From assembly GCF_009931435.1 (NCBI RefSeq), contig NZ_CP043414.1: a DNA stretch of 64,000 nt; one strand, written 5' to 3'. Numbering within the stretch: position 1 is the stretch's first letter; each line of letters opens with the position of its first letter. Under the pieces are notes generated by a model. That model did no database searches. It had not been told where the DNA came from and saw nothing but the letters and a program-made list of their open reading frames with translations. A program made the translations under genes and the position numbers. Shown in pieces: positions 2,253 through 10,654 of this stretch. The DNA is from Escherichia coli. GTDB lineage: Bacteria > Pseudomonadota > Gammaproteobacteria > Enterobacterales > Enterobacteriaceae.

Positions 2253-3341
2253 TTAGCCGTGACGGCGTTCGAACTCAATCATGAAGTCTGTCAGCGCTTT
2301 AACGCCTTCCAGAGGCATTGCGTTATAAATTGACGCACGCATACCGCCGACCACACGATGCCCTTTCAGGGCATGCAGCCCCGCAGCAAAAGACTCTTCA
2401 AGGAACAATTTGTCAAGCGCACTGTCCGCCAACTGGAACGGCACGTTCATCCGCGAACGGTTAGCTTTCGCCACGTCATTGCGGTAGAAATCGCTGTTAT
2501 CAATCACCCCATACAGCAGTTCTGCTTTTTGCTGATTGATTTTATCCATTGCAGCTACACCGCCGTTCGCTTTCAGCCATTTAAAGACCAGACCAGACAG
2601 ATACCAGGCAAATGTCGGCGGCGTGTTAAACATTGAGTCGTTATCGTTAAGGATGGAATAATCCAGAATCGACGGACAAGCGATATTCGCTTTACCCAGT
2701 AAGTCTTCACGAACGATGACGATTGTCAGGCCCGCCGGGCCGATATTTTTCTGTGCGCCAGCATAAATCACACCGTAACGACTGACGTCAATTGGACGGG
2801 AAAGAATCGTTGAAGAGAAGTCGGCTGCAACCACCACTTCTTTACCAAAGTCTGGCGTTTCGTCGATGGCGATACCATCGATGGTCTCATTTGGGCAGTA
2901 ATGCATATAAGCGGCATTATCAGAGAGCTGCCATTCACGCATTGGCTTAACCGCACGAAGACCATCAACAGTCACTTTGGCGTCAAAGACATTTGGCTTG
3001 CAGTATTTTTTCGCTTCTTTAATGGCACTTGCCGCCCAGTAACCGGCATCAACATAATCTGCAGTGGTTTTATCACCAAGAATATTCAGCGGAACAGCAG
3101 CAAACTGACCGCGACCACCGCCGTGGCAGAACAATACTTTATAGTTGGAGGGGATATTAAGAAGATCGCGAAAATCCTTCTCGGCTTCCTCTGCAACCTG
3201 AATGAACTCTTTACCACGGTGGCTCACTTCCATCACCGACGTACCAAGACCGTTCCAGTCGCGCAGTTCCTGTTGAGCCTGTTTAAGCACCTCTGCCGGT
3301 AGCATTGCCGGACCAGAACTAAAATTGAAGATTTGAGCCAT
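2253..3341 (-). CDS. serC: Phosphoserine aminotransferase
   Basis: 362-aa [49 protein letters not shown]... recognised as SerC. Confidence 0.97.
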
Positions 3342-3539
3342 TTCCCCTCACCACGTTGCGTTGCCATTAACCCACGGACAATCGATTGCGACCGCGGGTA
3401 ATACATTATTCCTGTGGCTATCGGTTTTATCATTCAGTGGCGCGCATCGCAATGGGTAAAACAGTCGAGGGCAAAAATGCGGCACGCGTCACACAATAGA
3501 ATCTCTCGGATTATTGTCCAAAAACCGATTTTTTTGCTG

Positions 3540-4232
3540 TCAGGTCACCCGTTTAGCCCGACTTGCCTTCGTCCATTCTGGATTTGCACAGCGCGGACAT
3601 AATTGTTTTTCCCCTGCGTTCATATGAATGATCTCACTGCAACGGATGCAAGCATAGTCCGCCGACTCAGGCACCACTTTGTAACGCTGAGTACAGTCAC
3701 TGGGTAAAATAAGTAATCCCGGTTTCACCTTGTCATCTTCAAAGAAATAGACACTGATTTGCCCGTTGGTTTCGAGAATCGCCAGACGTACCTGCCCCAA
3801 CTGCTCCACTCCACGCAGTCGCAGCTCCATAAAGAACTCAAATTCCGTCATGTTGGAGTTATTAAGTTTCGACCAGGCCAGCTCACCATCCTCAATAATG
3901 ACAACCGGCTTGCCTTCCAGAAGATCCTCCAGTTTTTCACTGTGCGCCATCAACCACATTACCAGACGGTATAACAACGCCAGAGTAATAAAGACGATAA
4001 GCACCGGAACCATCGGCACATCATCATAAAACGCCACATCCCCCGCCGCTGACCCCAGCGTCAGAATGATTAACACTTCAAACAGCGACATCTGCCGCAC
4101 ACCGCGTCTGCCGGTCATTTTGAGGAATAAAAAGACCAGTACAAAGGTATAAAGACTACGTAGTGCAACTTCGCCAAGGAAATCAAAAGGCACTTTATCA
4201 AATGCCATACGGTGGAGATCGAATGCCTTCAT
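3540..4232 (-). CDS. ycaP: Inner-membrane protein YcaP (DUF421 family)
   Basis: 230-aa ORF with hydrophobic segments; matches K-12 YcaP length and position upstream of serC. Confidence 0.85.
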   Translation of the reverse strand: MKAFDLHRMAFDKVPFDFLGEVALRSLYTFVLVFLFLKMTGRRGVRQMSLFEVLIILTLGSAAGDVAFYDDVPMVPVLIVFITLALLYRLVMWLMAHSEKLEDLLEGKPVVIIEDGELAWSKLNNSNMTEFEFFMELRLRGVEQLGQVRLAILETNGQISVYFFEDDKVKPGLLILPSDCTQRYKVVPESADYACIRCSEIIHMNAGEKQLCPRCANPEWTKASRAKRVT

Positions 4233-4361
4233 TTTTATGCTCTTATCGTGGTTTATCCGCTAAAAGCATAGTCAACAGTTCATCTGCCTGGCGGCGGTGA
4301 TAGCGCCTTTGAGATAAAACCCGTATTATTGCGCGCTTTCCGTACGACTAAAGTGATTTTC

Positions 4362-6122
4362 ATGACGCAAACATTTATCCCCGGCAAAGATGCCGCTCTG
4401 GAAGATTCCATCGCTCGCTTCCAACAAAAACTTTCAGACCTCGGTTTTCAGATTGAAGAGGCCTCCTGGCTGAATCCCGTGCCTAACGTCTGGTCTGTGC
4501 ATATTCGCGACAAAGAGTGCGCACTGTGTTTTACCAACGGTAAAGGCGCAACCAAAAAAGCGGCGCTGGCTTCTGCACTCGGTGAATATTTCGAGCGTCT
4601 GTCTACCAACTACTTTTTTGCTGACTTCTGGCTGGGCGAAACCATCGCCAACGGTCCATTCGTGCATTATCCCAACGAAAAATGGTTCCCACTGACCGAA
4701 AACGACGATGTACCAGAAGGGCTGCTCGATGACCGTCTGCGCGCATTTTACGATCCGGAGAATGAACTGACCGGCAGCATGCTGATTGACCTACAATCTG
4801 GTAACGAAGATCGTGGTATTTGCGGTCTGCCGTTTACGCGCCAGTCCGACAATCAGATCGTTTATATTCCGATGAATATCATTGGTAACCTGTACGTTTC
4901 TAACGGTATGTCCGCTGGCAATACCCGCAACGAAGCGCGCGTTCAGGGATTATCTGAAGTTTTCGAACGCTACGTGAAAAACCGCATTATTGCTGAAAGC
5001 ATCAGCCTGCCAGAGATCCCGACAGACGTGCTGGCGCGTTATCCAGCGGTGGTTGAAGCGATCGAAACACTGGAAGCGGAAGGTTTCCCGATCTTCGCTT
5101 ATGATGCCTCGCTTGGCGGTCAATATCCGGTGATCTGCGTGGTACTGTTCAATCCAGCTAACGGTACCTGCTTTGCATCCTTCGGTGCACATCCTGATTT
5201 TGGCGTTGCACTGGAACGTACCGTGACCGAGTTGCTGCAAGGCCGCGGTCTGAAAGATTTGGATGTGTTTACTCCGCCAACCTTCGATGATGAAGAAGTC
5301 GCTGAACATACTAACCTCGAAACGCACTTTATCGATTCCAGCGGTTTAATCTCCTGGGACCTATTCAAGCAGGATGCTGATTATCCGTTTGTGGACTGGA
5401 GCTTCTCAGGCACCACGGAAGAAGAGTTTGCTACGCTGATGGCTATCTTCAACAAAGAAGATAAAGAAGTTTATATTGCCGATTACGAGCATCTGGGCGT
5501 TTATGCTTGCCGCATTATCGTGCCTGGCATGTCCGATATTTATCCGGCAGAAGATCTGTGGCTGGCGAATAACAGCATGGGCAGCCATTTACGTGAAACG
5601 ATTCTTTCACTCCCAGGCAGCGAGTGGGAAAAAGAAGATTACCTGAACCTCATCGAGCAACTGGATGAAGAAGGTTTTGATGACTTTACCCGCGTGCGTG
5701 AGCTATTGGGTCTGGCAACCGGGCCGGATAACGGCTGGTACACTCTGCGTATCGGTGAATTAAAGGCTATGTTGGCGCTGGCTGGTGGCGATCTGGAACA
5801 GGCTCTGGTCTGGACTGAATGGACGATGGAATTTAACTCATCAGTGTTCAGTCCGGAACGCGCCAACTATTATCGCTGTCTGCAAACGTTGTTATTACTG
5901 GCACAGGAAGAAGACCGCCAACCACTGCAATATCTGAATGCCTTCGTTCGTATGTATGGCGCAGATGCCGTAGAAGCCGCCAGTGCGGCAATGAGCGGTG
6001 AATCGGCGTTTTATGGCTTGCAACCCGTAGATAGCGATCTGCACGCGTTTGCTGCACATCAGTCGTTGTTGAAGGCCTACGAAAAGCTGCAGCGCGCCAA
6101 AGCAGCATTCTGGGCAAAATAA
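4362..6122 (+). CDS. ycaO: YcaO-domain protein (ribosomal protein S12 methylthiolation accessory factor)
   Basis: ORF track begins at an upstream alternative start (4329). ATG at 4362 (MTQTFIPGKDAALED...) gives the expected 586 aa. Confidence 0.9.
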   Translation: MTQTFIPGKDAALEDSIARFQQKLSDLGFQIEEASWLNPVPNVWSVHIRDKECALCFTNGKGATKKAALASALGEYFERLSTNYFFADFWLGETIANGPFVHYPNEKWFPLTENDDVPEGLLDDRLRAFYDPENELTGSMLIDLQSGNEDRGICGLPFTRQSDNQIVYIPMNIIGNLYVSNGMSAGNTRNEARVQGLSEVFERYVKNRIIAESISLPEIPTDVLARYPAVVEAIETLEAEGFPIFAYDASLGGQYPVICVVLFNPANGTCFASFGAHPDFGVALERTVTELLQGRGLKDLDVFTPPTFDDEEVAEHTNLETHFIDSSGLISWDLFKQDADYPFVDWSFSGTTEEEFATLMAIFNKEDKEVYIADYEHLGVYACRIIVPGMSDIYPAEDLWLANNSMGSHLRETILSLPGSEWEKEDYLNLIEQLDEEGFDDFTRVRELLGLATGPDNGWYTLRIGELKAMLALAGGDLEQALVWTEWTMEFNSSVFSPERANYYRCLQTLLLLAQEEDRQPLQYLNAFVRMYGADAVEAASAAMSGESAFYGLQPVDSDLHAFAAHQSLLKAYEKLQRAKAAFWAK

Positions 6123-6127
6123 AATCA

Positions 6128-6200
6128 AATAGCCTACGCAATGTAGGCTTAATGATTCGTCTGAGTTATATTACGGGGCGTTTTTTTAATGCCCCGCTTT
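6128..6200. other. Two inverted repeats downstream of ycaO (agcctacgcaatgtaggct; cggggcg-T7-aatgccccg); possible terminator or structured element
   Basis: Palindromes read directly from the sequence; no clean downstream U-run, so the terminator call is weak. Confidence 0.3.
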
Positions 6201-6453
6201 ACATATATTTGCATTAATAAAATAATTGTAATTATAAAGTTAAATATCGATAATTTGTATTTAATAAATACGATCGATATTGTTACTTTATTCGCTTGGT
6301 GCTCCCTTTTAATTAACTGTTTTAGCGGAGGATGCGGAAAAAATTCAACTCATTTGTTAATTTTTAAAATTTATTTTTATTTGGATAATCAAATATTTAC
6401 TCCGTATTTGCATAAAAACCATGCGAGTTACGGGCCTATAAGCCAGGCGAGAT

Positions 6454-6467
6454 ATGATCTATATCAA
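6454..6467 (+). promoter_or_regulatory. FNR-like binding site (ATGATctatATCAA) in the focA-pflB anaerobic promoter region
   Basis: 13 of 14 match to TTGAT-N4-ATCAA, about 60-70 bp upstream of the focA GTG start, with -10-like hexamers (tataat 6477-6482; tagtat 6490-6495) downstream. focA-pflB is a known FNR/ArcA-regulated operon. Confidence 0.45.
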
Positions 6468-6527
6468 TTTCTCATCTATAATGCTTTGTTAGTATCTCGT
6501 CGCCGACTTAATAAAGAGAGAGTTAGT

Positions 6528-7385
6528 GTGAAAGCTGACAACCCTTTTGATCTTTTACTTCCTGCAGCAATGGCCAAAGTGGCCGAAGAGGCAGGTGTCT
6601 ATAAAGCAACGAAACATCCGCTTAAGACTTTCTATCTGGCGATTACCGCCGGTGTTTTCATCTCAATCGCATTCGTCTTCTATATCACAGCAACCACTGG
6701 CACAGGAACAATGCCCTTCGGCATGGCAAAACTGGTTGGCGGCATTTGCTTCTCTCTGGGGCTGATTCTTTGTGTTGTCTGCGGAGCCGATCTCTTTACT
6801 TCCACAGTGTTGATTGTTGTTGCTAAGGCGAGTGGGCGCATCACCTGGGGTCAGTTGGCGAAAAACTGGCTAAATGTCTATTTTGGCAACCTGGTCGGCG
6901 CACTGCTGTTTGTACTTTTAATGTGGCTTTCCGGCGAGTATATGACCGCGAATGGTCAATGGGGACTAAACGTCCTACAAACCGCCGACCACAAAGTGCA
7001 CCATACTTTTATTGAGGCCGTCTGCCTTGGTATCCTGGCAAACCTGATGGTATGTCTGGCAGTATGGATGAGTTATTCTGGCCGCAGCCTGATGGATAAA
7101 GCGTTCATTATGGTGCTGCCGGTCGCGATGTTTGTTGCCAGCGGTTTTGAGCACAGTATCGCAAACATGTTTATGATCCCGATGGGTATTGTAATCCGCG
7201 ACTTCGCATCTCCGGAATTCTGGACCGCTGTCGGTTCTGCACCGGAAAATTTTTCTCACCTGACCGTGATGAACTTCATCACTGATAACCTGATTCCGGT
7301 TACGATCGGTAATATTATCGGCGGTGGTTTGTTGGTTGGGTTGACATACTGGGTCATTTACCTGCGTGAAAACGATCACCATTAA
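6528..7385 (+). CDS. focA: Formate channel FocA (formate/nitrite transporter family)
   Basis: GTG start at 6528 (VKADNPFDLLLPAAMAKVAEEAG...) gives 285 aa. The 398-aa ORF in the track is an artefactual upstream extension through AT-rich leader. Confidence 0.93.
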   Translation: MKADNPFDLLLPAAMAKVAEEAGVYKATKHPLKTFYLAITAGVFISIAFVFYITATTGTGTMPFGMAKLVGGICFSLGLILCVVCGADLFTSTVLIVVAKASGRITWGQLAKNWLNVYFGNLVGALLFVLLMWLSGEYMTANGQWGLNVLQTADHKVHHTFIEAVCLGILANLMVCLAVWMSYSGRSLMDKAFIMVLPVAMFVASGFEHSIANMFMIPMGIVIRDFASPEFWTAVGSAPENFSHLTVMNFITDNLIPVTIGNIIGGGLLVGLTYWVIYLRENDHH

Positions 7386-7439
7386 TGGTTGTCGAAGTAC
7401 GCAGTAAATAAAAAATCCACTTAAGAAGGTAGGTGTTAC

Positions 7440-9722
7440 ATGTCCGAGCTTAATGAAAAGTTAGCCACAGCCTGGGAAGGTTTTACCAAAGGTGACTGGC
7501 AGAATGAAGTAAACGTCCGTGACTTCATTCAGAAAAACTACACTCCGTACGAGGGTGACGAGTCCTTCCTGGCTGGCGCTACTGAAGCGACCACCACCCT
7601 GTGGGACAAAGTAATGGAAGGCGTTAAACTGGAAAACCGCACTCACGCGCCAGTTGACTTTGACACCGCTGTTGCTTCCACCATCACCTCTCACGACGCT
7701 GGCTACATCAACAAAGCGTTGGAAAAAGTTGTTGGTCTGCAGACTGAAGCTCCGCTGAAACGTGCTCTTATCCCGTTCGGTGGTATCAAAATGATCGAAG
7801 GTTCCTGCAAAGCGTACAACCGCGAACTGGACCCGATGATCAAAAAAATCTTCACTGAATACCGTAAAACTCACAACCAGGGCGTGTTCGACGTTTACAC
7901 TCCGGACATCCTGCGTTGCCGTAAATCCGGTGTTCTGACCGGTCTGCCAGATGCTTATGGCCGTGGTCGTATCATCGGTGACTACCGTCGCGTTGCGCTG
8001 TACGGTATCGACTACCTGATGAAAGACAAATACGCTCAGTTCACCTCTCTGCAGGCTGATCTGGAAAACGGCGTAAACCTGGAACAGACTATCCGTCTGC
8101 GCGAAGAAATCGCTGAACAGCACCGCGCTCTGGGTCAGATGAAAGAAATGGCTGCGAAATACGGCTACGACATCTCTGGTCCGGCTACCAACGCTCAGGA
8201 AGCTATCCAGTGGACTTACTTCGGCTACCTGGCTGCTGTTAAGTCTCAGAACGGTGCTGCAATGTCCTTCGGTCGTACCTCCACCTTCCTGGATGTGTAC
8301 ATCGAACGTGACCTGAAAGCTGGCAAGATCACCGAACAAGAAGCGCAGGAAATGGTTGACCACCTGGTCATGAAACTGCGTATGGTTCGCTTCCTGCGTA
8401 CTCCGGAATACGATGAACTGTTCTCTGGCGACCCGATCTGGGCAACCGAATCTATCGGTGGTATGGGCCTCGACGGTCGTACCCTGGTTACCAAAAACAG
8501 CTTCCGTTTCCTGAACACCCTGTACACCATGGGTCCGTCTCCGGAACCGAACATGACCATTCTGTGGTCTGAAAAACTGCCGCTGAACTTCAAGAAATTC
8601 GCCGCTAAAGTGTCCATTGACACCTCTTCTCTGCAGTATGAGAACGATGACCTGATGCGTCCGGACTTCAACAACGATGACTACGCTATCGCTTGCTGCG
8701 TAAGCCCGATGATCGTTGGTAAACAAATGCAGTTCTTCGGTGCGCGTGCAAACCTGGCGAAAACCATGCTGTACGCAATCAACGGCGGCGTTGACGAAAA
8801 ACTGAAAATGCAGGTTGGTCCGAAATCTGAACCGATCAAAGGCGACGTCCTGAACTACGATGAAGTGATGGAGCGCATGGATCACTTCATGGACTGGCTG
8901 GCTAAACAGTACATCACCGCACTGAACATCATCCACTACATGCACGACAAGTACAGCTACGAAGCCTCTCTGATGGCGCTGCACGACCGTGACGTTATCC
9001 GCACCATGGCATGTGGTATTGCTGGTCTGTCCGTTGCTGCTGACTCCCTGTCTGCAATCAAATATGCGAAAGTTAAACCGATTCGTGACGAAGACGGTCT
9101 GGCTATCGACTTCGAAATCGAAGGCGAATACCCGCAGTTTGGTAACAACGACCCGCGTGTAGATGACCTGGCGGTTGACCTGGTAGAACGTTTCATGAAG
9201 AAAATTCAGAAACTGCACACCTACCGTGACGCAATCCCGACTCAGTCTGTTCTGACCATCACTTCTAACGTTGTGTATGGTAAGAAAACTGGTAACACCC
9301 CAGACGGTCGTCGTGCTGGCGCGCCGTTCGGACCGGGTGCTAACCCGATGCACGGTCGTGACCAGAAAGGTGCTGTAGCATCTCTGACTTCCGTTGCTAA
9401 ACTGCCGTTTGCTTACGCTAAAGATGGTATCTCCTACACCTTCTCTATCGTTCCGAACGCACTGGGTAAAGACGACGAAGTTCGTAAGACCAACCTGGCT
9501 GGTCTGATGGATGGTTACTTCCACCACGAAGCATCCATCGAAGGTGGTCAGCACCTGAACGTTAACGTGATGAACCGTGAAATGCTGCTCGACGCGATGG
9601 AAAACCCGGAAAAATATCCGCAGCTGACCATCCGTGTATCTGGCTACGCAGTACGTTTCAACTCGCTGACTAAAGAACAGCAGCAGGACGTTATTACTCG
9701 TACCTTCACTCAATCTATGTAA
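7440..9722 (+). CDS. pflB: Pyruvate formate-lyase (formate C-acetyltransferase 1), glycyl-radical enzyme
   Basis: 760-aa [46 protein letters not shown]... with the C-terminal glycyl-radical region (RVSGYAVRF). Confidence 0.98.
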
Positions 9723-9913: not shown

Positions 9914-10654
9914 ATGTCAGTTATTGGTCGCATTCACTCCTTTGAATCCTGTGGAACCGTAGACGGCCCGGGTATTCGCTTTATCACCTTTTTCCAGGGC
10001 TGCCTGATGCGCTGCCTGTATTGTCATAACCGCGACACCTGGGACACGCATGGCGGTAAAGAAGTTACCGTTGAAGATTTGATGAAGGAAGTGGTGACCT
10101 ATCGCCACTTTATGAACGCTTCCGGCGGCGGCGTTACCGCATCCGGCGGTGAAGCAATCCTGCAAGCTGAGTTTGTTCGTGACTGGTTCCGCGCCTGCAA
10201 AAAAGAAGGCATTCATACCTGTCTGGATACCAACGGTTTTGTTCGTCGTTACGATCCGGTGATTGATGAACTGCTGGAAGTAACCGACCTGGTAATGCTC
10301 GATCTCAAACAGATGAACGACGAGATCCACCAAAATCTGGTTGGAGTTTCCAACCACCGCACGCTGGAGTTTGCTAAATATCTGGCGAATAAAAATGTGA
10401 AGGTGTGGATCCGCTACGTTGTTGTCCCAGGCTGGTCTGACGATGACGATTCAGCGCATCGCCTCGGTGAATTTACCCGTGATATGGGCAACGTTGAGAA
10501 AATCGAGCTTCTCCCCTACCACGAGCTGGGCAAACACAAATGGGTGGCGATGGGTGAAGAATACAAACTTGATGGTGTTAAACCACCGAAGAAAGAGACC
10601 ATGGAACGCGTGAAAGGCATTCTTGAGCAGTACGGTCATAAGGTAATGTTCTAA
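9914..10654 (+). CDS. pflA: Pyruvate formate-lyase activating enzyme (radical SAM)
   Basis: ATG at 9914 ([39 protein letters not shown]...) gives 246 aa with the CxxxCxxC radical-SAM motif. Confidence 0.97.

Follow-up and report, generated by a model that had tools for sequence, protein, structure and literature searches.

The ycaO locus and its surroundings

The window, which is the whole stretch of 64,000 nucleotides of Escherichia coli DNA that was analysed, carries the gene ycaO between ycaP/serC/aroA and focA-pflB-pflA. The features of the locus are the following.

4233..4361, no strand assigned: divergent ycaP-ycaO intergenic region of 129 nt, with the presumed ycaO promoter and ribosome-binding site
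4362..6122, + strand: ycaO coding sequence, a translated ORF of 586 codons plus TAA, with equal coordinates in RefSeq
4536..5534, + strand: YcaO ATP/Mg2+-binding catalytic domain, aa 59-391 (Pfam PF02624, E=1.3e-75)
4965..4967, + strand: codon GAA of the ATP-site residue Glu202 (codon checked)
5580..6104, + strand: YcaO_C, TPR-like C-terminal domain, aa 407-581 (Pfam PF18381, E=2.7e-65)
6123..6527, + strand: ycaO-focA spacer of 405 nt, the AT-rich focA-pflB regulatory region, listed as context and outside ycaO function
6131..6196, + strand: three hairpins just 3' of the ycaO stop (6131-6149, 6152-6169 and 6174-6196)
6528-7385, + strand: focA, downstream of ycaO
7440-9722, + strand: pflB, downstream of ycaO
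9914-10654, + strand: pflA, downstream of ycaO

According to the ORF and its translation, the gene starts at ATG 4362, stops at TAA 6120-6122 and encodes a product of 586 aa, and RefSeq maps ycaO to the identical positions, 4362-6122 on the + strand. The mechanical ORF at the gene starts further upstream, at TTG 4329; this longer N-terminus was rejected because ATG 4362 corresponds to aligned residue 1 in 81/81 orthologues and is the start used both by RefSeq and by the crystallised protein. An in-frame stop within the 11 codons upstream of the ATG is found in only 19 of the 81 loci, and is thus a weak check on the start. At the DNA level, the gene shares 98-99% identity with E. coli chromosomes and occurs in 5425 of 5426 complete genomes; a deposited E. 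coli protein exactly equals the YcaO of the window. The YcaO-domain gene that an earlier note on this DNA had placed at 4362-6122 is therefore confirmed by the RefSeq coordinates and by the Pfam, NCBIfam and PDB matches, and this copy of ycaO is an ordinary, intact core gene of E. coli.

The genes within 6 kb of ycaO are aroA (EPSP synthase), serC (aminotransferase), ycaP (DUF421/YetF), focA (formate channel), pflB (PFL), pflA (radical-SAM activase), ycaK (a reductase with a flavodoxin-like fold) and ycaN (LysR regulator). This gene content agrees with the description of ycaO in the earlier note as a stand-alone gene next to the pfl locus, with focA, pflB and pflA downstream on the same strand. 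ycaP was rejected as a partner of YcaO, since it is found in only 45 of 80 loci.

Upstream of the gene, the ORF list holds no free-standing ORF in 4233..4361, and a simple consensus scan of this spacer, whose median length across species is 136 nt, gave no sigma-70 match. Downstream, the region 6131..6196 has an RNA folding energy of -30.4 kcal/mol (z=-4.5 relative to shuffles, with 0/200 shuffles as stable). The third of its hairpins is G+C-rich and is followed by a U-rich stretch, which makes it a likely candidate for the ycaO terminator. Promoter-like sequences occur at 6198-6226 and at 6226-6254, but solely as matches to a consensus, and the Rfam search of window positions 3000-8000 returned no match at E<=1.

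These data bear on the reading that the function of ycaO is linked to the neighbouring focA-pflB-pflA genes, which serve anaerobic formate metabolism. focA follows ycaO in 71 of the 80 Enterobacterales loci, and the ycaO-pfl synteny has been noted before (PMC7550191). However, the strong hairpins directly after the ycaO stop agree with the finding, cited in the same paper, that ycaO and focA-pfl are transcribed separately (PMC7550191), ycaO is kept without adjacent focA-pfl in loci L046, L048, L064, L065 and L078, and the OsmC-fused YcaO relative described below lies in an unrelated gene neighbourhood. The ribosomal modification attributed to YcaO, a thioamide in protein uL16, was moreover seen on ribosomes from aerobic cultures (PMC7550191). 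We therefore consider a functional link to the pfl genes very improbable and rejected it, because ycaO persists where no adjacent pfl is present and has terminator-like hairpins of its own.

Domain composition and conservation of the protein

The protein covers the complete YcaO domain model PF02624 (model positions 1-325 of 325; 255 bits, cut-off 25.7) and scores well above the cut-off of the YcaO superfamily model TIGR00702 (571.5 bits, cut-off 75.65). It also matches NF040716, the NCBIfam YcaO equivalog model named "YcaO_for_S12", with 915.9 bits for a cut-off of 700 and over model positions 1-570 of 571. The scores for the models of other YcaO types fall under their cut-offs: 46.8 bits for the SagD-type TOMM model TIGR03604 (cut-off 219.25), 40.1 bits for the McrA-type model TIGR03266 (cut-off 365), and 681.3 bits for the OsmC/YcaO model TIGR03549 (cut-off 900), in which the alignment is confined to model positions 148-722.

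The isoelectric point of the protein is 4.38, with 92 Asp+Glu residues for 42 Lys+Arg, and it ranges from 4.34 to 4.61 among the 81 orthologues. The alignment of these orthologues has 329 invariant columns of 586 across Enterobacterales, and the mean identity of YcaO in this order, 87.9%, is similar to that of the housekeeping proteins AroA and SerC. E202 is invariant in 81/81 orthologues. S71, E75, E78, S184, N187, E199, R203, R286 and E290 are likewise invariant across the 81; the structural work on 4Q84-86 reportedly places these residues in the ATP site.

The structures PDB 4Q84/4Q85/4Q86 align to the protein of the window over 586/586 residues, of which 580 are identical. The six differences from the E. 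coli K-12 protein (T166I, A221T, G249A, N347S, S455P and A548S) all sit in columns that are variable in the 81-orthologue alignment. All 12 of the interface residues probed in PMC13063428 are present, and 10 of them are invariant among the 81 orthologues. Proteins of the EcYcaO group bear a C-terminal TPR-like YcaO_C domain of ~150-170 residues, which is also present here, and have a low pI (~4.4), complementary to the basic uL16 (PMC13063428). YcaO_C is responsible for dimerisation and might help to bind uL16 (PMC13063428). On sequence grounds, the protein can thus be assigned to the YcaO superfamily and, within it, to the EcYcaO group.

Search for a RiPP cluster

Membership in the YcaO superfamily, together with the mechanical small ORFs that do exist in the flanks of ycaO, would be compatible with a RiPP cyclodehydratase, or another peptide modifier, whose small precursor ORF lies nearby and is unannotated. 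The earlier note had excluded a RiPP cluster on the grounds that genes for a precursor peptide, an E1-like partner and a dehydrogenase are all missing around ycaO, and had proposed a scan of the flanks for small ORFs of 30-80 aa or genes with partner domains. We surveyed every flanking ORF of 20 aa or more within the window, and grouped 869 ORFs, each 15 aa or longer, from 81 loci into families. No conserved free-standing small-ORF family was found among them, and the scan over 80 species gave no such ORF next to ycaO.

The largest family runs antisense across the start of ycaO; it was rejected, since its members end at 36 different stop positions, vary from 16 to 111 aa, and are 26% identical in their intergenic part. 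The second family, an antisense ORF of 33 aa across the start of focA, ~350 nt from ycaO, was rejected because its conservation tracks that of the N-terminal part of FocA and of the focA leader. The remaining small ORFs were rejected as AT-rich low-complexity sequence or as the focA leader read in frame; those in 6123..6527 are antisense, of low complexity, or in-frame leader sequence.

Within 6 kb of ycaO there are no E1/ThiF-like, SagB-type or TfuA genes. ycaK was considered as an azoline dehydrogenase and rejected, as its product has a flavodoxin-like fold and not that of a nitroreductase/SagB. Along with the score of the SagD-type TOMM model, below its cut-off, and the report that short uL16 peptides are no substrate in vitro and that YcaO needs the folded protein (PMC13063428), these results leave a peptide-modifying YcaO with a nearby precursor as an almost negligible possibility, and the exclusion of a RiPP cluster stands.

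Thioamidation of uL16 and the S12 accessory-factor label

The function of E. coli YcaO (EcYcaO) has been addressed directly by Rice et al. 2026 (PMC13063428), who reported that it installs a backbone thioamide at Met82 of uL16 with ATP, Mg2+ and sulfide. The modification, first seen by cryo-EM (PMC7550191), is lost when ycaO is deleted, is complete when uL16 and YcaO are co-expressed, and is impaired by ATP-site variants such as E202A (PMC13063428). The reaction also proceeded in vitro when full-length uL16 was supplied together with Na2S, MgCl2 and ATP; a Kd of 9.8 nM was determined, and the orthologues from Klebsiella and Pseudomonas were validated as uL16 thioamidases (PMC13063428). The direct uL16 assignment comes from this one 2026 paper, in which the sulfide used in vitro is non-physiological and deletion of ycaO alone causes no growth defect (PMC13063428).

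The gene of the window is intact, 99% identical to the characterised enzyme, keeps all the diagnostic features and has no RiPP partners nearby. In our judgement, it very probably encodes a stand-alone YcaO of the E. coli type, an enzyme that depends on ATP and Mg2+ to activate amides and whose physiological substrate is folded uL16, and we infer that the same thioamidation takes place in this strain. From the evidence of Rice et al. 2026, it follows that YcaO does have a gene-encoded substrate, namely a ribosomal protein in its folded state and not a neighbouring peptide; the gene for this protein, rplP, lies elsewhere and is absent from the window.

In the mechanism given in the literature, the acidic YcaO (pI ~4.4) and the strongly basic uL16 (pI ~11) bind through an extended electrostatic interface, and the 70-93 loop of uL16 enters the YcaO active site. 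A sulfide equivalent then attacks the backbone carbonyl of Met82, the resulting oxyanion is phosphorylated by ATP, and the departure of phosphate leaves sulfur in place of the carbonyl oxygen. Within the ribosome, the modified residue is found close to the peptidyl-transferase centre, beside beta-hydroxy-Arg81.

RefSeq and NCBIfam name the product "S12 methylthiotransferase accessory factor", and the earlier note took this accessory role in S12 beta-methylthiolation as the known function in E. coli. This part of the note is not supported: it repeats a database product name, and the activity demonstrated is uL16 thioamidation (PMC13063428). The idea that YcaO primarily assists RimO in the methylthiolation of Asp88 of ribosomal protein S12 goes back to Strader et al. 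2011, who found that YcaO co-purified with tagged S12 and that deleting ycaO lowered S12 modification from 99% to 84% (cited via PMC13063428 and PMC7550191). This small drop might reflect a secondary effect on the ribosome. In vitro, RimO by itself can modify a peptide analogue of S12, and the S12 mark disappears completely when rimO is deleted (PMC13063428); the AlphaFold3 interface scores of EcYcaO are not confident for either uS12 (0.31) or RimO (0.16) (PMC13063428). We would also see no obvious role for an ATP-dependent amide-activating site in radical-SAM methylthiolation. A primary function as accessory to RimO is accordingly very unlikely, and the link to S12 and RimO is weak and probably indirect. 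The product name in RefSeq and NCBIfam is outdated, since it lags behind the 2026 demonstration on uL16.

OsmC-fused relatives and a possible route of sulfur delivery

Proteins with fused OsmC and YcaO domains (TIGR03549) are 53-54% identical to the YcaO of the window in their YcaO + YcaO_C part and are also acidic (pI 4.7). What sets them apart is an OsmC-like domain of ~145 aa at the N-terminus, in which three cysteines are invariant; the protein of the window lacks this domain. Consistent with this, a tblastn search with a fusion protein (P0018) matched the window only over P0018 residues 148-727. When the OsmC domain of the fused proteins was compared with the PDB, only distant OsmC-family matches were obtained.

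The validated Pseudomonas YcaO probably carries this extra N-terminal OsmC domain, as judged from its cloning primer, which encodes MVEVKVNFL. This peptide fits the fused-family N-terminus in 97 of 120 fused proteins and in 0 of 75 unfused ones. The published primer gave no exact match in metagenome contigs, so that the P. aeruginosa ycaO itself was not found there.

It is conceivable, though unlikely, that sulfur delivery in uL16 thioamidation involves a cysteine module of the OsmC family. If so, the OsmC fusion could point to a missing sulfur or redox relay, and YcaO of the E. coli type would rely on an in-trans partner or on free sulfide. The published AlphaFold3 scores against EcYcaO that were covered here, 0.15 (E. 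coli OsmC), 0.16 (TusA) and 0.17 (MoaD), lend no support to direct binding (PMC13063428). This idea concerns the protein family, and nothing in the window itself is unusual in this respect.

Significance and comparison with known systems

For the reading of the genome, there is nothing out of the ordinary in the ycaO locus, which consists of a core gene of E. coli without a natural-product cluster. The useful outcome is the corrected interpretation of the gene product, from an S12 accessory factor to a uL16 thioamidase acting near the peptidyl-transferase centre. In the mining of genomes for YcaO proteins, those that are acidic, stand-alone and bear YcaO_C should be treated as ribosome modifiers and not as orphan RiPP enzymes.

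The TOMM/azoline cyclodehydratases (SagD, BalhD, McbD and LynD type; TIGR03604) share the YcaO ATP-binding fold and the O-phosphorylation of an amide (PMC13063428). They depend on a precursor peptide encoded next to them and on an E1-like or RRE partner, and in many cases on a SagB dehydrogenase as well; the locus of the window has none of these.

The YcaO of methanogens (TIGR03266; for example MJ1094, PDB 6PE3/6PEU), which thioamidates a glycine in methyl-coenzyme M reductase McrA, has the same chemistry as EcYcaO, an ATP-dependent swap of backbone oxygen for sulfur on a protein and not on a RiPP (PMC13063428). It is distant in sequence, with a PDB match of E=3.8e-4 over ~120 residues. Furthermore, it is often paired with TfuA and accepts short peptides, whereas EcYcaO works without TfuA, which E. 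coli is stated not to have, and needs folded uL16 (PMC13063428).

YcaO from Klebsiella pneumoniae (A6T6Z8) and from Pseudomonas aeruginosa (Q9I2H8) belong to the same similarity group of acidic YcaO proteins as EcYcaO, and carry out the same reaction, each on its own uL16 (PMC13063428). The nearest known system is YcaO of E. coli K-12 (UniProt P75838; PDB 4Q84, 4Q85, 4Q86), which shares its length (586 aa), both of its domains and its genomic position with that of the window. The reported pI of the K-12 protein, 4.4, compares with 4.38 here, and E202 and the probed interface residues are common to both. The two differ by the six substitutions given above, which are conservative.

Identity and integrity of the ycaO gene

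The YcaO gene that the earlier note places at 4362-6122 was confirmed, and is intact, by its open reading frame, RefSeq coordinates, Pfam domains, NF040716 match and alignment to PDB structures. At positions 4000-6500, the DNA shares 98-99% identity with E. coli chromosomes and is present in 5425 of 5426 complete genomes, and the coordinates of the open frame, once mapped onto the best match, coincide exactly with those of RefSeq ycaO. In Pfam, the YcaO domain is complete at residues 59-391 (E=1.3e-75) and YcaO_C lies at residues 407-581 (E=2.7e-65); with the NCBIfam equivalog NF040716, whose cut-off is 700, the protein reaches 916 bits. In an alignment over its full length, six substitutions (T166I, A221T, G249A, N347S, S455P and A548S) separate the protein from the E. 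coli K-12 YcaO of the crystal structures (PDB 4Q84, 4Q85 and 4Q86), and an E. coli deposit identical to the 586-aa sequence exists. The GC content of the gene is 50.4%, compared to 50.1% for the window. A TTG start of the mechanical ORF, 11 codons upstream, was rejected in favor of the ATG, which is residue 1 in all 81 aligned orthologues.

Features of the ycaO neighborhood
899-2182: aroA, upstream of ycaO and divergent from it
2253-3341: serC, upstream and divergent
3540-4232, minus strand: ycaP (DUF421/YetF), upstream and divergent
4362-6122, plus strand: ycaO, open frame of 586 codons from the ATG at 4362 to the TAA at 6120-6122
6131-6149: first hairpin after the ycaO stop
6152-6169: second hairpin
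6174-6196: third hairpin
6476-6577, minus strand: 33-aa TTG-initiated ORF, antisense across the focA start
6528-7385, plus strand: focA, downstream of ycaO
7440-9722, plus strand: pflB, downstream
9914-10654, plus strand: pflA, downstream
Beyond pflA: ycaK (flavodoxin-like fold), then ycaN (LysR)

The stability of the hairpins (-30.4 kcal/mol) far exceeds that of shuffled sequence (z=-4.5), consistent with PMC7550191, which cites ycaO and focA-pfl as separately transcribed. No Rfam family matches positions 3000-8000, even at E<=1, and rplP (which encodes uL16), rpsL and a second YcaO gene are all absent from the window. Among 80 Enterobacterales loci, ycaO is preceded by serC in 79 and by aroA in 77, and is followed by focA in 71, pflB in 69 and pflA in 66. 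Only 45 carry ycaP; where it is missing, serC abuts ycaO across a spacer of about 310 nt. In loci L046, L048, L064, L065 and L078, focA-pfl is not adjacent, and ycaO is kept beside serC.

Other observations in the window

The window is collinear with the aroA...rlmC core region. Compared in 25-kb blocks with 5426 complete genomes of E. coli, it reaches a best identity of only about 98-99.1%, and the strain's lineage is without a close representative among them. An island of low GC, about 2.5 kb long (56450-59050; 31-34% GC versus about 50%), lies between ybjQ and ybjP and carries the following gene:

56636-58477, minus strand: 613-aa ORF with weak pentapeptide-repeat matches

PADLOC gave no match for this ORF. 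The island is present in 1128 of the 5426 genomes; the window's allele (at least 99% identity) occurs in only 17 of them, and a second one, of 80-90% identity, in 1109. The gene is probably strain-variable and of horizontal origin.

Small open reading frames around ycaO

The locus had been described as lying outside any RiPP cluster, and this reading holds: no conserved short ORF was found beside ycaO in the 81 loci compared, and no E1/ThiF-like protein, SagB-type nitroreductase-fold dehydrogenase or TfuA is found among its neighbors from aroA to ycaN. Free-standing ORFs of 30-80 aa are absent from both intergenic flanks in the window, the candidates being antisense or overlapping known genes. 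For conservation, the window was compared with 80 orthologous loci of other species of Enterobacterales (81-98% protein identity), and clustering of the 869 ORFs of 15 aa or more from both flanks of the 81 loci yielded two large families. The first is antisense over the ycaO start codon, with 36 different stop positions, lengths from 16 to 111 aa and an intergenic part only 26% identical. The second, the 33-aa ORF antisense over the focA start and about 350 nt from ycaO, recurs in 58 loci, straddling the focA start in 47, of which 35 share one stop position; its conservation mirrors that of the FocA N-terminus (90% identity) and of the focA leader (68%). Both families look like shadows of sequence conserved on the sense strand. 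The other families were rejected as precursors, being AT-rich low complexity or the focA leader in one frame.

Upstream of the annotated GTG at 6528, a further 113 codons of the focA frame itself are free of stops, through the AT-rich promoter region, giving a mechanical ORF (6189-7385, plus strand) of 398 aa versus the annotated 285 aa. This extension looks incidental, since in 19 other loci the equivalent stretch forms an ORF of its own, about 40 aa long and ending at the focA start; in L007, its frame differs from that of focA.

Thioamidation of uL16

The E. coli ribosome structure at 2.0 Å showed a thioamide in the uL16 backbone at Met82 and named YcaO as a candidate enzyme (PMC7550191). 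Building on it, Rice et al. (Biochemistry 2026; PMC13063428) ran a proteome-wide AlphaFold3 screen, in which no partner but uL16 was posed in the YcaO active site. They reported that the thioamide is lost upon ycaO deletion, that co-expression of YcaO and uL16 gives complete modification, and that ATP-site variants such as E202A impair it. In vitro, full-length uL16 was modified in a reconstituted reaction with Na2S, MgCl2 and ATP; 11- and 21-residue peptides stayed unmodified. The reported Kd was 9.8 nM, and the Klebsiella and Pseudomonas orthologues were validated as uL16 thioamidases. Judged by its sequence, the window gene is this already characterised E. coli uL16 Met82 thioamidase.

The role as an S12 beta-methylthiolation accessory, given in the earlier note and also in the product name used by RefSeq and NF040716, is outdated. 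The effect that PMC13063428 notes from Strader et al. is no more than a drop in S12 methylthiolation from 99% to 84%; RimO alone is active in vitro, and the AlphaFold3 interface scores of E. coli YcaO with uS12 (0.31) and RimO (0.16) are not confident (PMC13063428).

The pI of the window protein, 4.38, agrees with the value of 4.4 used as a hallmark in PMC13063428, and it keeps E202 as well as every one of the twelve interface positions that were mutated there. Across the 81 orthologues, E202 and 10 of the 12 interface residues are invariant (T317 and L329 vary), as are 329 of the 586 columns; pI ranges from 4.34 to 4.61, and all six K-12 differences fall in variable columns. The residues that, from structural work, we take to form the ATP site are likewise invariant. 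Mean identity across loci is 87.9% for YcaO, comparable to focA (88.2%), aroA (86.6%) and serC (85.4%), with ycaP well below at 78.5%. This level agrees with the slow divergence described for enzymes bound to a static substrate (PMC13063428).

OsmC fusions and the sulfur donor

In PMC13063428, the sulfur donor in cells is given as not established, and TfuA as missing both from E. coli and from the surroundings of every uL16-type ycaO. A search of 1.84 billion representative proteins returned 2693 relatives. The third-best cluster, P0018, is a 729-aa protein, 53-54% identical, with OsmC, YcaO and YcaO_C domains and a pI of 4.72, encoded at 5001-7190 of its locus L083. All 120 top matches in its own homologue search share this architecture, many of them from Halobacteriovorax and Bacteriovoracaceae. 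Such fusions (P0018 and the homologues P0166-P0284) are abundant, have 719-759 aa and share about 54% identity with E. coli YcaO. In the OsmC part, three cysteines are invariant in the 120 matches, which is weak evidence because these form a narrow clade.

OsmC is never mentioned in the main text of PMC13063428. According to its primer table, the cloned Pseudomonas enzyme begins MVEVKVNFL, which fits the N-terminal pattern of 97 of 120 fused and 0 of 75 unfused proteins; the validated Pseudomonas thioamidase is therefore probably an OsmC fusion, as far as this primer peptide indicates. A primer-based scan of metagenome contigs for the Pseudomonas ycaO gave zero matches. ThiS and TfuA are absent from the one fusion genomic context examined. 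The interface scores of E. coli YcaO with E. coli OsmC (0.15), TusA (0.16) and MoaD (0.17) in the PMC13063428 dataset count against a simple transfer of the OsmC idea to E. coli, and we consider it improbable that an OsmC-family cysteine module takes part in the sulfur-delivery step.

Other multi-domain relatives of E. coli-type YcaO (P0099 and P0156) include a protein of 1472 aa that has a methyltransferase domain at its N-terminus and a 1105-aa YcaO-PDZ-peptidase S41-peptidoglycan-binding fusion; these may have substrates other than uL16.

Comparison with known YcaO families

By its profile matches, the window protein is assigned to the YcaO superfamily and, within it, to the E. coli-type group. 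It falls below the curated cut-offs of the TOMM SagD family (46.8 bits versus 219), the McrA-type thioamidase family (40.1 versus 365) and the OsmC/YcaO fusion family (681 versus 900, aligned only to model positions 148-722). The chemistry follows the general YcaO mechanism, in which attack of a nucleophile on a backbone carbonyl is followed by phosphorylation of the oxyanion by ATP and elimination of the phosphate. The enzyme would resemble the methanogen protein thioamidases in its working, and the cut-offs place it outside their family.
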